A DNA stretch of 64,000 nt from Puniceicoccaceae bacterium (GTDB taxonomy: Bacteria; Verrucomicrobiota; Verrucomicrobiia; Opitutales; Oceanipulchritudinaceae), in assembly GCA_040830765.1 (NCBI GenBank), contig JBFOMH010000020.1, positions 37,332 through 101,331 on the forward strand, written 5' to 3'. Shown here piece after piece: positions 42,001 through 45,000 of the stretch; the first letter of the stretch is position 1, and each line of letters begins with the position of its first letter. Made by a program: the position numbers.

Positions 42001-45000
42001 GTCGGGGCAGCCCTCCGTGCCTTTCTTGAGAACGGACTGGAACCGCCAACCCTGATCGGCCTGGCCAAGAAGAAGGAGACGATCATTTTCAGCGATGGCC
42101 GCGAGCCGCTGGAACTTCCCGGGCACCACAAGGGCCGTCTTCTCCTGCAGCACATCCGTGACGAAGCTCACCGCCACGCCAATTCATACAACGCTGAGTT
42201 GCGGCGGCGGAAGCTGCGGGAATCGATTCTTGATGACTTCCCGGGAATGGGGGCGCGCAAGCGGAGGGCGTTGATGGACTACTTTGGTTCCCTCGAGAGG
42301 CTGCGCAAAGCGGATGCCTCAGAGCTGCAAAAGGTGGATGGAATTGGACCCAAGCTGGCCGAGGGACTAGTTGAGTTTCTCCAATGGGAGGAATCAGGCG
42401 TTTGAACCGATGGGCTGTTCCAGTAAGGGGAACATGACACCTTTCCGGAACAAGGTTACCTGTCCGCTGGAGGCCGAAACGCAGAGCGATATGCAGTCAG
42501 CTGCCTTGGTGATCGCGGCGGCGGCCGAGTGGCGGGTCCCGAATCCCGACGGCAGGTTGTCATAGAATTCCGCAGGCGCGTGGATCAGGGAGCCTGCCGA
42601 CTCAATGATCCCGTCACCACGAATGACGAAGCCTCCATCAATTACGGAATACTCCTTGATGGTCTCGTCCATGAACGGATTGAGGACGTTACGGTCTTCC
42701 ATCCGGTAACCATAAAATGGATTGAGGACGAGGGGCTTGACCATGTTGTTGACCCGTTCGGTATCGCCGATGACGAACATCGTGCCGACCGGTTTCCCCT
42801 CGCGCCCTTCGACGGACAGGTCAGTAGCAATGGCAATCATCCGCTCGAGAACCTCGATTTTGACGGATGAAGGAAGGAGATCGTTTTCCCGGTCGATGAC
42901 GCTCTGGAACTCCCGCTCGATATCAACGACCATGAGGGTGTCCAGTTGATTGCTGGCCGGAATGCCACCGACACAGAGCAAGCGGTCGTTGTGCTTGAAG
43001 ATGCCCCGTGTCAGTCCGATGAGGATGGCACTGCGGGCTTGGGAAAGGCGCTGGCTGGAATAGGACCGGACCTCGATCGCGGTTTCAATTTGCTTGCTTT
43101 CGGCGACCCGGTCGCTGGCTGCCCGGGTGACCAGAATGGTCCGGAAATTCGGAAAGCCCCGGGCTCCCTCAATGCCGCCAGCGAAGGTATCGCCGAAGAG
43201 AAGGATGGCCGAGCATTTCGATTCCCGGGCAATCTTCTCCCCCTCCTTCAGGAGCAGGCGATTAAAGCGGGTCTGCCGCCGCTCGGGCTTTGCCAGCAGA
43301 CCGGCAAAGCCAAGGAAGACCCGTTCGGCAAAGGTCGCCGTATCCGGAGCAGTGACCATGTTTTCGACAAGGTCCTTGTCCCGGAAGAGGCGGGCCAGCG
43401 AAGCGAGTACGTTGAGGTAGTTCTTCTCGTCCTCGGAGGCCAGGAGCAGGAAGATAAGCCGGATGTGCTGGTATTCCTCGAGGCCCTCAAAATCGACACC
43501 ATCCTTGACCCGGCCGATGGCGAAGATGTAGGGCCGCTTCATCTTGATGCGCATGTGCGGCATCGCCACCCCGTTGCCCAAGTAGGTGGTCATGGACTTT
43601 TCCCGGTTCAGGAGCTGATTGGTTATCCGACGAACATTGAGCTCTTCCTGTACCCTGATCGTGGAAACCTCGACCAGTTCCAGAAGAGCGCCTCTCAGAT
43701 CCGTCGCCTCAATCTCAATGATCCGGGATTTTGCGATATATCGGTCAAGCCGCACAAATACCGGATTAAAGGAGAAGTCCTCCCGAAGACAATGCCAATT
43801 TTTATTAAGCTTAAGGCGTTGGGGAAACTTGACCGGAAAGCCGGGTCGCAGCCTCCTTGAGCGGATCCGCAAGCGCTGACAAGTCAGGGTCGGCCTCCCA
43901 TCCGCGGATGGTATCGAGTGCCCGCTGCAGGCGTTCCATGTGACCCGTTGATTCTGTATTGGAAAAGTTAGTACTGAGAAGGTTGTGGGAGAGGGACTGG
44001 TTCATGTTCGGGAAATGGGCCAGGAACCGTTCCGCCTCCTCCCTGGAGGTCTGGGCTGAGGCCAGGTAGTCCTTGAGCAGGGCTTGCCCCTCCGGGCTGA
44101 CCGGATCGAGGCGTGCGACTAAACCAGCCCTTGCGGACGGCTTCATGGCCTGGCCTTCCGGGCTCGAGAGCAGTTGGCTGATGGCGGCGACAGGAGCCTG
44201 GTCGACCATCCGCTCAAGGGCCAGGCTGGAGGCATGGCGCAGGCGCGGGGCCTGTTCTTCAGACGTCAACTTGGCAATCTCCGGGACTAACAGTGGGTCT
44301 TCCAGATAGACTGCCACATCCATGGCTTCGGCCATCGCGCTGCCGGGATCATCAATCCACGGCTGGTGTCCGAGAAGGATTTTGAAGTGGCCCTTGAGGA
44401 AGATTAAGCTTTCGTCGCTACCTGGATTACCACGGGCGAAATTGCGCATGTGAATCACATACAGGTCCTGCCCGAGATCCGTTCCTCCACCTGTCAGGGC
44501 AAGACGGGCAAGGCCGGCAGCGCGCTCCGGATCAATCTGGCCCAGCCAGTCGGCCAAAAGGACTTGCAGGCTGGGTCCGCCTTCAAGGTTGCCCCCGGGG
44601 CCGACCTGGAAAGCCATCCCTGTCGGCAAGTCCACGCGGCTGATGATCAGTTCGATCAAGCGGGCGCTGGCATCCGCTTGCTCCATGGAAAAGACAGCAC
44701 TCCGCATGGCCAGAATGGCATTGCGCATGTCCTCTGGAGAGGATTGCTGCTGCAGGTAGTTCATCCAATCCACCCACAGTGGCGGAGTGGCCTGCAAATT
44801 TGTAATCGCGATGCTTTCGGCTTCCTCTGCCGGAGATGGCTCATCCACTTGCGGTGCTGCCGCTGTATTTTCAGGAATGGATTCCTCGACCGGTGCCACC
44901 TCAGGGCTGGGAGTCTCTTCGCTGATCGGGGAGTCCTCGGAACGATCCCGATTGAGGAACAGGAACCAGGAGGCGGTGAGGAGAATGACAAGGATAAGGG

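Follow-up and report, generated by a model that had tools for sequence, protein, structure and literature searches.

The window, a 64,000-nucleotide stretch of a Puniceicoccaceae bacterium contig (JBFOMH010000020.1), carries a gene for a 453-residue protein in which an EIIA(Ntr)-type PTS domain, a DacZ_P domain and a DAC domain follow one another, the order given in the genome-wide survey's note on this locus (Table 1). All three domains were recovered by Pfam above the curated cut-offs: PTS_EIIA_2 (PF00359) at residues 37-142 (8.8e-22, 78.1 bits against a cut-off of 27), DacZ_P at residues 163-284 (4.4e-16, 59.1 bits against 27.4) and DAC (PF02457) at residues 314-440 (4.7e-18, 65.3 bits against 27). 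The gene sits within the open reading frame 42394..43872 of the minus strand, and its GTG start fits, since the alignments with homologues begin at query residue 1-3. As the note had also reported, the three domains were present in all 120 of the best homologues listed. NCBI labels most of these 'PTS sugar transporter subunit IIA'; JGI calls them either 'diadenylate cyclase' or by a double name, DisA/EIIA. An AF2 model of the cyclase reached a pLDDT of 87.4 and a pTM of 0.64, so that the arrangement of the domains is moderately certain at most, and the linker at residues 154-157 was of low confidence.

The neighbours of the cyclase gene in the window (uvrC, a hypothetical gene and an EamA gene) are conserved within the genus only and were uninformative on function. 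No terminator-like site was found between the cyclase and the co-oriented gene upstream, with which it is possibly co-transcribed, and one such site (46144-46115) lies upstream of the EamA gene.

Table 1. Features of the window considered here, with window coordinates.
Feature	Position	Strand	Basis or remark
EIIA_2/DacZ_P/DAC diadenylate cyclase gene	42394..43755	-	453 aa, GTG start; Pfam
EIIA (PtsN-like) domain, residues 1-153	43297..43755	-	PTS_EIIA_2; PtsN/EIIA-Ntr sequence and fold matches
His67 codon, predicted phospho-acceptor (GNGVAMPH)	43555..43557	-	Aligned with the PtsN His
DacZ_P (pyruvate-kinase-C-like) middle domain, residues 158-290	42886..43284	-	Pfam; predicted dimer interface
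DAC catalytic domain, residues 300-447, with D373-G374-G375 and R408-H409-S410	42415..42858	-	Pfam; fold
Upstream co-oriented gene, 404 aa, no Pfam family	43811..45025	-	55 nt from cyclase start
EamA-family transporter gene	45022..45900	-	First gene of possible operon
K+ channel-like protein (Ion_trans_2, two TrkA_N, two TrkA_C)	31003..32703	+	Domain content

The PTS and DAC complement of the genome (3.99 Mb in 40 contigs, 96.93% complete) was then considered. Profile searches returned a single DAC match, that of the cyclase, in agreement with its description in the survey as the sole c-di-AMP synthase. Two EIIA_2 matches were obtained, one in the cyclase and the other at C4:264143-264505, within a 752-residue protein with Na_H_Exchanger (23-395), TrkA_N (409-490) and EIIA_2 (620-738) domains; the reported fusion of the only other EIIA to an exchanger was thus recovered. 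EI, HPr and HPr kinase, all three listed in the note, were each found: one EI without a GAF domain, one HPr with GIHARPA and NGKSIMG sites, and one full-length HPr kinase. The EIIA-bearing cyclase shares its genome with a cognate EI and an HPr that has both the His and the Ser site. The note had claimed that EIIB and EIIC were lacking, and no match to PTS_EIIC, PTS_IIB, PTS_EIIB, EII-Sor or EIIC-GAT was obtained, nor to EIIA_1, EIIA-man or PRD, in a search that left out the glucitol families, PTS_IIA (lactose type), EIIC_2, EIID-AGA and PTSIIB_sorb. Among the permease families searched, the EIIB and EIIC parts of a sugar-transporting PTS were missing. As the census of the order below shows, 'PTS sugar transporter subunit IIA', the common label in public annotation, misleads when given to this family.

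The fold of the DAC domain matched DisA, CdaA and DacM. Classical DAC enzymes carry the motifs DGA and RHR. In the cyclase the third residue of each motif differs, giving DGG (G375) and RHS (S410), with DGA and RHA in most relatives, and D373, G374, R408 and H409 were invariant in 65 sequences. The DGA and RHR motifs of DAC enzymes are also mentioned in the available passages of Braun 2019 (PMC6741144). The haloarchaeal DacZ equivalog NF041371 (NCBIfam) aligned with residues 209-441 (E 5.3e-31) at 108 bits, far below its cut-off of 430; judged by its sequence, the cyclase is related to archaeal DacZ but stands outside that equivalog. The substituted motif residues and this low score would suit a degenerate protein, a nucleotide-binding regulator in an organism that makes no c-di-AMP. 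We rejected this idea as very improbable, given the invariant Asp-Gly and Arg-His pairs, the RHA-type motif that is the rule in the whole family, the DGA that is invariant in the distant set, and the retention of the gene as the sole DAC even in genomes of 0.8-1.0 Mb. It also sits poorly with the downstream parts of the genome, which encodes RCK_C proteins (10 TrkA_C domains were counted in 5 proteins) and one 7TM-7TMR_HD protein of the PgpH type. Judging from its domains, the K+ channel-like protein of the window is a candidate c-di-AMP receptor through its RCK_C domains, and a TrkA and a CpaA-like exchanger are further RCK_C candidates. The c-di-AMP riboswitch RF00379 had no match in the genome.

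Modelling of the cyclase as a homodimer gave a score of 0.42 against 0.00 for the best of three controls, a result classed as supporting binding; among proteins of solved structure, 20 of 30 one-chain pairs attained this mark, as did 1 of 23 single chains. Contacts agreed between runs in at least 40%, with a partner pLDDT of at least 76, and the confident contacts were predicted in the DacZ_P domain (residues 164-179, 236, 265, 272-278 and 282). The score was barely at the mark, and it may reflect the likeness of the DacZ_P contact to pyruvate-kinase interfaces.

The best PDB matches of the EIIA domain, in sequence and in fold, were PtsN/EIIA-Ntr proteins (TM-scores per target of 0.77-0.85). 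The GNGVAMPH stretch ends at His67 and was aligned with GNGIAIPH of E. coli PtsN (chain 1a6j), which places the phosphorylatable His where the survey had put it. This residue was nearly invariant (at least 90%) in alignments A1 and A2, which reach very distant members that share 26-49% identity with the query. The domain scored below the cut-offs that identify stand-alone PtsN, both for the PtsN equivalog TIGR01419 (53.1 against 138.7 bits) and for PRK10896 (32.3 against 221 bits). From its sequence and modelled fold, the EIIA domain of the cyclase looks competent.

The above findings suggested that this EIIA-fused, DacZ-type cyclase, the only c-di-AMP synthase found in the genome, is set by the PTS phosphorelay through its EIIA domain, a reading that we favour with moderate confidence. 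Under this model the dimer would be constitutive and held by the DacZ_P domains. Phosphate from PEP would pass from EI to HPr (His16) and on to His67, with HPr kinase, acting on Ser47 of HPr, as the gate of that transfer. Phosphorylation of His67 would then alter how the two DAC domains face each other and so set the rate of c-di-AMP synthesis, which would follow PEP/pyruvate and the glycolytic state, with either sign of effect possible; both the phosphotransfer to His67 and its effect on cyclase activity are what we infer from the parts present. The c-di-AMP made would act on K+ and cation transporters with RCK_C domains and would be removed by the PgpH-type hydrolase. The second EIIA, fused to a CPA1 cation/proton exchanger, could form a parallel output and a covalent version of the PtsN-YcgO pair of E. 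coli. The survey had gone further and left the phosphorelay no outputs other than c-di-AMP synthesis and cation exchange. That does not follow, because regulatory PTS proteins act on unfused partners, as PtsN does on YcgO; HPr, with HprK, may also have targets of its own.

We compared these parts across a sample of 101 genomes of the order. The cyclase was found in 96 of them and was the sole DAC match in 94 of those 96; full-length, single-frame genes that retain EIIA numbered 89 among the 96 genomes with a match. Exactly one EIIA_2 match, almost always the cyclase's own, was present in 69 of the 101 genomes. HPr was detected in 85, EI in 83, HprK in 81 and PTS_EIIC in only 3, and the pattern of a relay without a permease is therefore even stronger at the level of the order than in the single genome. 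With most members lacking a permease and carrying their sole EIIA_2 on the cyclase, we would predict that the phosphorelay serves largely c-di-AMP regulation. A transporter-less phosphorelay probably sets c-di-AMP levels through the fused cyclase. The broader proposal, that the PTS of the order has been pared down to EI, HPr, HPr kinase and, as a rule, one EIIA, a metabolic sensor whose chief task is to set the level of c-di-AMP as an essential messenger through phosphorylation of the N-terminal domain of the sole cyclase, is put forward tentatively and as somewhat doubtful. Within this sample, exchanger-sized frames with EIIA_2 were seen in no more than three families (f1, f3 and that of genome G193), and the exchanger-EIIA fusion is not a conserved partner of the cyclase.

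The distribution of His67 bears on whether the EIIA domain needs to be phosphorylated at all. At this position 80 of 94 rows of the order alignment have His. Among rows from genomes with EI, 73 of 79 have His and 6 do not, which argues for a phosphorylated domain, as does its near invariance in the distant members. However, His67 is replaced by Tyr in all four members of family f43 and by Asn or Ser in the two genomes of family f66, despite the presence of EI and HPr in both families. In rows without a detected EI, His was kept in 7 and replaced in 4, and the EIIA domain was missing or truncated in 4. The 7 EI-less genomes that keep EIIA with its His point either to a role of the domain that is independent of phosphotransfer or to slow decay. 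Genomes G153 and G232 lack EI and have Tyr at this position, yet they keep HPr, with hprK directly after the cyclase gene. Such cases would be expected if EIIA worked in its unphosphorylated state, as a structural, oligomerisation or partner-binding module (with HPr, HPr(Ser-P) or a small ligand as examples of what it might bind), the link to PEP-driven phosphotransfer being vestigial. The available part of a preprint (bioRxiv 10.64898/2026.08.14.744764) offers a precedent, which serves the favoured model as well: when E. coli PtsN is unphosphorylated, it binds the CPA1 K+/H+ antiporter YcgO and inhibits it, H73 lying at the interface. The effect on YcgO comes from this binding and not from phosphotransfer to it. 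Against such a role stands, in addition to the His counts, family f71, which has lost EI, HPr, HprK and EIIA_2 together, its cyclase beginning at the DacZ_P domain. The position of hprK next to the cyclase gene in G153 and G232 also counts in favour of the phosphorelay model. At least 5 of the 7 inferred changes of the His state fall in two EI-less clades, but EI loss amounts to only two changes on the tree and a test of independent pairs (EI against His loss) rested on 2 pairs and had no power, so that the raw counts were taken as suggestive only. On balance we consider an EIIA that acts unphosphorylated to be unlikely, and we retain regulation by phosphotransfer to His67 as the favoured model. 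The link drawn in the survey between the PTS, c-di-AMP and K+ accordingly stands as regards the gene inventory and the pattern in the order; it falls short in that the exchanger fusion is not conserved and His67 is not universal.

Regulation could also enter through the middle domain, with a metabolite bound by DacZ_P as the main regulator, as in unfused DacZ/CdaZ, and the EIIA input minor or conditional. DacZ_P-DAC proteins without EIIA are indeed common (43 of 150 representatives and 49 of 80 kept genome loci), family f71 has reverted to this two-domain form, and the predicted dimer interface lies in DacZ_P. In its available passages, Braun 2019 (PMC6741144) states that PK_C-like domains bind ligands, proposes a regulatory role for them and calls the function of the DacZ N-terminal domain unknown. 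The retention of EIIA in the 89 full-length genes of the order and across several phyla nevertheless speaks against a minor input, and we regard control by a DacZ_P ligand as quite improbable. We know of no DacZ_P ligand and of no input signal for DacZ-type cyclases on record. If the broader and more doubtful proposal of a PTS pared down to a sensor for c-di-AMP is right, a DacZ-type cyclase would for the first time have a known upstream signal, along a direct, hard-wired route from PEP/pyruvate and the glycolytic state through c-di-AMP to K+ and osmotic homeostasis, with a K+/H+ exchanger wired in parallel in some families. Apart from CdaA and DisA, little is understood about how the enzymes that make c-di-AMP are controlled. 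A PTS receiver built into the cyclase itself provides an input that can be put to a direct test.

Several known systems share parts of this arrangement. CdaA, which has CdaR and GlmM as partners, is membrane-anchored and has separate regulators in a conserved operon. Like the cyclase described here it is a sole or essential DAC, and its regulators are tied to central metabolism and the cell envelope; in contrast, the present cyclase is soluble, has fused sensor domains and lacks a conserved operon. In E. coli, EIIA-Glc acts on adenylate cyclase. In Caulobacter, EIIA-Ntr acts on SpoT/Rel and (p)ppGpp, according to the part of the source available (PMC10118264). In both cases a nucleotide messenger is made or degraded according to whether an EIIA is phosphorylated, but these EIIAs act in trans on separate enzymes, whereas here EIIA is within the cyclase and the messenger is c-di-AMP. 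The PtsN-YcgO system has in common with this genome a PtsN-like EIIA with a phospho-His, a PTS without a transport role and a CPA1 exchanger as the partner of an EIIA. It differs in that here each EIIA forms one polypeptide with the protein on which it presumably acts, EI is of the PtsI type without GAF, and an HPr kinase is present. The archaeal enzymes DacZ of Haloferax volcanii and CdaZ of Methanocaldococcus jannaschii also have a PK-C-like domain followed by DAC, as described in the available passages of PMC6741144, and H. volcanii dacZ is single and essential, the present cyclase being likewise the sole DAC. Compared with them, the cyclase has an additional N-terminal EIIA, a bacterial host and RHS in place of RHR.

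The EIIA-DacZ_P-DAC fusion is not confined to the order or phylum, and a scan of genome contigs also recovered it in Spirochaetota, Fibrobacterota and Planctomycetota. Nor is the architecture new: this is an ordinary, already catalogued cyclase of its order, presumably the class called 'DacD', which we take, in view of the taxa of its listed representatives, to denote EIIA_2 plus DAC. The legend of Fig. A1 in Braun 2019 (PMC6741144) uses this class name, credits it to Corrigan & Gruendling 2013 and lists representatives from Lacunisphaera, Puniceicoccaceae, Coraliomargarita, a Verrucomicrobia bacterium and an Opitutae bacterium. As far as that legend goes, these members come from the same order as the cyclase and their taxa match the names of its homologues, and an EIIA_2-DAC architecture is present here. 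The literature that could be searched returned no paper or biochemical datum on an EIIA-fused cyclase.

The surroundings of the gene were finally compared between genomes. Outside the phylum, 77 ORFs that flank the gene at 31 full-length loci gave no match to a PTS family, which counts against the phosphorelay model, and no PTS gene was among the recurring neighbours at 20 loci of the order. The 404-residue gene adjoins the cyclase only within the same genus among these 20 loci, at which the recurring neighbours were a nuoA-like gene, a TPR protein and an Mrp/NUBPL-like ATPase.

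The cyclase is read from a GTG start, which is sound, since relatives align from residue 1-3 of the 453-residue version. Its three domains match Pfam over the curated cut-offs (see table). NCBIfam DacZ also matches it (5.3e-31), with 108 bits lying far under the equivalog cut-off of 430, and it scores under the cut-offs of the fruA-type EIIA and PtsN models. By both sequence and fold, the closest solved structure to the EIIA part is PtsN (TM-score per target 0.77-0.85), and alignment to solved structures pairs GNGVAMPH67 with GNGIAIPH of E. coli PtsN; passages of a preprint describe H73 as the sole phosphorylation site of PtsN (bioRxiv 10.64898/2026.08.14.744764). 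In the DAC domain, D373, G374, R408 and H409 are invariant among 65 diverse sequences, while the third residue of each motif varies (DGG and RHS in the cyclase versus DGA and RHA in most relatives). The AF2 model is of good quality, with a mean pLDDT of 87.4, a pTM of 0.64 and a low-confidence linker at residues 154-157. JGI annotation of homologues already gives both halves of the protein. The uvrC gene converges on the cyclase gene, the 3' ends overlapping by 12 nt.

Positions of the features discussed
Feature	Location	Strand	Remark
Cyclase gene	window 42394..43755	-	GTG start, 453 aa
ORF enclosing cyclase gene	window 42394..43872	-	ORF call
uvrC	window 40921-42405	+
K+ channel with RCK_C	window 31003-32703		candidate c-di-AMP target
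PTS_EIIA_2	cyclase residues 37-142		Pfam 8.8e-22
DacZ_P	cyclase residues 163-284		Pfam 4.4e-16
DAC	cyclase residues 314-440		Pfam 4.7e-18
Na_H_Exchanger	exchanger fusion residues 23-395		752-aa protein
TrkA_N	exchanger fusion residues 409-490
EIIA_2	exchanger fusion residues 620-738		own LPH motif
STAS-domain protein	L008:3773-4174 (contig C20)	-	outside window
Second DAC	G138:C8:21791-22621 (L107)
Second DAC	G201:C1:1270722-1271585 (L108)
Second DAC	G164:C7:19048-19389		493-aa frame
EIIA-DacZ_P-DAC cyclase	L209 (G153:C1:222628-229977), ORF 2500-4359	+	His to Tyr; 0.9-Mb genome
HPr kinase	L209 ORF 4384-5355	+	25 nt downstream of cyclase
Phosphoglucose isomerase	L209 ORF 5464-7047	+	after HPr kinase
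nuoA-like (Oxidored_q4)	L202:2559-2942; L204:2494-2868; L218:2359-2940; L208:4338-4772; L215:3630-4289; L205:4421-5011

The genome-wide survey's note had described an EIIA-fused sole cyclase with the second EIIA on an exchanger, and our domain and genome searches bear this out. The source genome (3.99 Mb, 40 contigs, 96.93% complete) has one DAC match and two EIIA_2 domains, in the cyclase and in the Na_H_Exchanger-TrkA_N-EIIA_2 fusion. The note's remaining inventory also holds: there is a single PtsI-type EI without a GAF domain, a single full-length HPr kinase adjoining lptA/lptB-like genes, and a single HPr, on the same contig just beyond the window, with both its His site (GIHARPA) and its Ser site (NGKSIMG). 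PTS_EIIC, EIIA_1, EIIA-man, PTS_IIB and PTS_EIIB gave no match in this genome, glucitol-type and a few minor families lying outside the search, and EII-Sor, EIIC-GAT and PRD gave none across 13 genus members, the source genome among them. A STAS-domain gene (anti-sigma-factor-antagonist type) adjoins ptsH just upstream, followed by a LOG/lysine-decarboxylase-like gene and rnpA-yidD-yidC.

Every one of the 120 best-matching 90%-clusters listed for the cyclase has all three domains. In a 151-genome phylum sample, full-length matches were found in 27/27 genomes of the order, 0/24 others of the class and 3/100 others of the phylum. The gene is present in 96 of 101 order genomes (E <= 1e-20) and is full length in one frame in 89; the other seven are split at contig ends (G155, G166), frame-shifted (G213), devoid of the first 88 residues (G198) or begin at the DacZ_P domain (three genes of family f71). 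Exactly one DAC match was found in 94 of these 96. A second DAC was seen in three order genomes: in G138 and G201 it is a paralogue of about 300-344 aa with DacZ_P and DAC but no EIIA, and in G164 it is a DAC of another kind that matches more strongly. Single in-frame stops interrupt the cyclase matches of four genomes of 0.8-1.0 Mb (L015, L018, L019 and L020 of G157, G234, G167 and G198; TAG, TGA, TAA and TAG, respectively), for which gene decay, sequencing error and an altered genetic code are possible causes.

Of 150 cluster representatives at 50% identity, 67 had all three domains, 21 (about 434-580 aa) EIIA and DAC, and 43 DacZ_P-DAC only. When species genomes were scanned using 40 distant members, 80 loci were kept, of which we count 31 as full-length fusions, in Spirochaetota, Fibrobacterota/Chitinivibrionia, Planctomycetota, Hydrogenedentes and 'Deltaproteobacteria' MAGs as well as other Verrucomicrobiota (Pontiellaceae, Nibricoccus). 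The fusion is therefore old and widespread and no peculiarity of the order. Following Corrigan & Gruendling 2013, the Fig. A1 legend of Braun et al. 2019 (PMC6741144) includes a class of bacterial cyclases called 'DacD', with representatives from Lacunisphaera, Puniceicoccaceae, Coraliomargarita, Verrucomicrobia and Opitutae; because the fusion is the sole DAC in nearly every genome of the order, DacD is very probably this family. Passages of PMC12901056 cite a census of 22 DAC families (Galperin 2023) and report DacZ in 19 gut Verrucomicrobiota species. The gene is a normal member of a catalogued family with a predicted function, and a full-text literature search found no paper with the EIIA-fused cyclase as its subject.

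Across the 101 order genomes, PTS_EIIC matched in 3, HPr in 85, EI in 83, HPr kinase in 81 and any EIIA_2 in 93, with exactly one EIIA_2 match in 69. This sole match was almost always the cyclase (exceptions seen were a stand-alone EIIA in G177 and a gene split over two contigs in G166), which allows a stronger and more general statement than the pairing with the exchanger: for most of the order, the one EIIA_2 domain detected forms the N-terminus of the single cyclase. Within the order sample, the fusion to the exchanger was seen in families f1 and f3 and genome G193 alone. This architecture, too, is widespread and annotated (Na_H_Exchanger and EIIA_2 in 118 of its 120 best matches, from Verrucomicrobiota, Planctomycetota and candidate phyla), and passages of a preprint offer a direct trans-acting precedent, in which PtsN, when unphosphorylated, inhibits the CPA1 K+/H+ antiporter YcgO (bioRxiv 10.64898/2026.08.14.744764). 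The note's interpretation, beyond its inventory, is supported in part: that the phosphorelay can only act on cyclase and exchanger is too strong, and the two-output picture is limited to those few families. A testable hypothesis is that the permease-less PTS of the order exists largely to regulate its sole c-di-AMP synthase.

Nor is the phospho-His universal. Among 94 rows, those with EI kept the His in 73 cases and replaced it in 6, with no domain missing or truncated; those in which EI was not found kept it in 7, replaced it in 4 (Tyr twice, Asn twice) and had a missing or truncated domain in 4. Genomes without detectable EI are mostly of 0.8-1.1 Mb (families f42, f46, f56, f71 and one genome of f73). 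In f71 no EI, HPr, HprK or any EIIA_2 was found, a pattern that fits relaxed selection on the phospho-site after relay loss. EI loss amounts to just two changes on the tree, and an independent-pairs test of EI versus His loss is without power. The His is also lost despite EI and HPr in f43 (Tyr in 4/4 genomes) and f66 (Asn or Ser), suggesting that the EIIA domain also has a phosphorylation-independent role or that those lineages use it differently.

A two-copy model of the cyclase scored 0.42 versus 0.00 for the best of three controls (verdict 'supports binding'). It passes the mark, as did 20 of 30 proteins whose solved structures are pairs of one chain, against 1 of 23 whose structures are single chains, but the score is borderline and may echo pyruvate-kinase-like interfaces. 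At least 40% of contacts agreed between runs, with a partner pLDDT of at least 76. The predicted interface is symmetric and lies within DacZ_P only (residues 164-179, 236, 265, 272-278 and 282). According to passages of Braun et al. 2019 (PMC6741144), DAC domains must meet face to face. Together, this need and the predicted DacZ_P dimer make a three-element model the most economical: the dimer would be held by the DacZ_P domains, the state of the EIIA domain would be set by His67 phosphorylation, and the EIIA domains would control whether two catalytic DAC domains can pair.

Ten RCK_C domains occur in five proteins of the source genome, all candidate c-di-AMP targets: the K+ channel in the window, TrkA, a CpaA-like exchanger and two CitMHS transporters. 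In S. aureus, CpaA has an RCK_C that binds c-di-AMP, as stated in a preprint (bioRxiv 10.64898/2026.08.14.744764). No c-di-AMP riboswitch was found in this genome. The CpaA-like exchanger (Na_H_Exchanger and two TrkA_C), a PgpH-type 7TM-7TMR_HD protein and lptA/lptB-hprK lie within about 12 kb of one another, outside the window (G000:C17, about 349.8-361.4 kb), so that a candidate receptor, a candidate hydrolase and HPr kinase form a loose cluster.

The only PTS gene linkage found for the cyclase family was in G153 and, on contig C43, G232, two genomes that gave no EI match but retain HPr and HprK; in both, the His is Tyr and hprK directly follows the cyclase gene. Phosphoglucose isomerase lies two genes downstream of the G153 cyclase, and six Fibrobacterota/Chitinivibrionia loci (L125, L129, L143, L146, L154, L168) conserve a synteny of GPAT-like acyltransferase, EIIA-fused cyclase and phosphoglucose isomerase; this linkage may hint at a tie of the cyclase to fructose-6-P and hexose-phosphate metabolism. 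A lone, co-oriented nuoA-like gene lies directly upstream of the cyclase at 6 of the 20 order loci examined.
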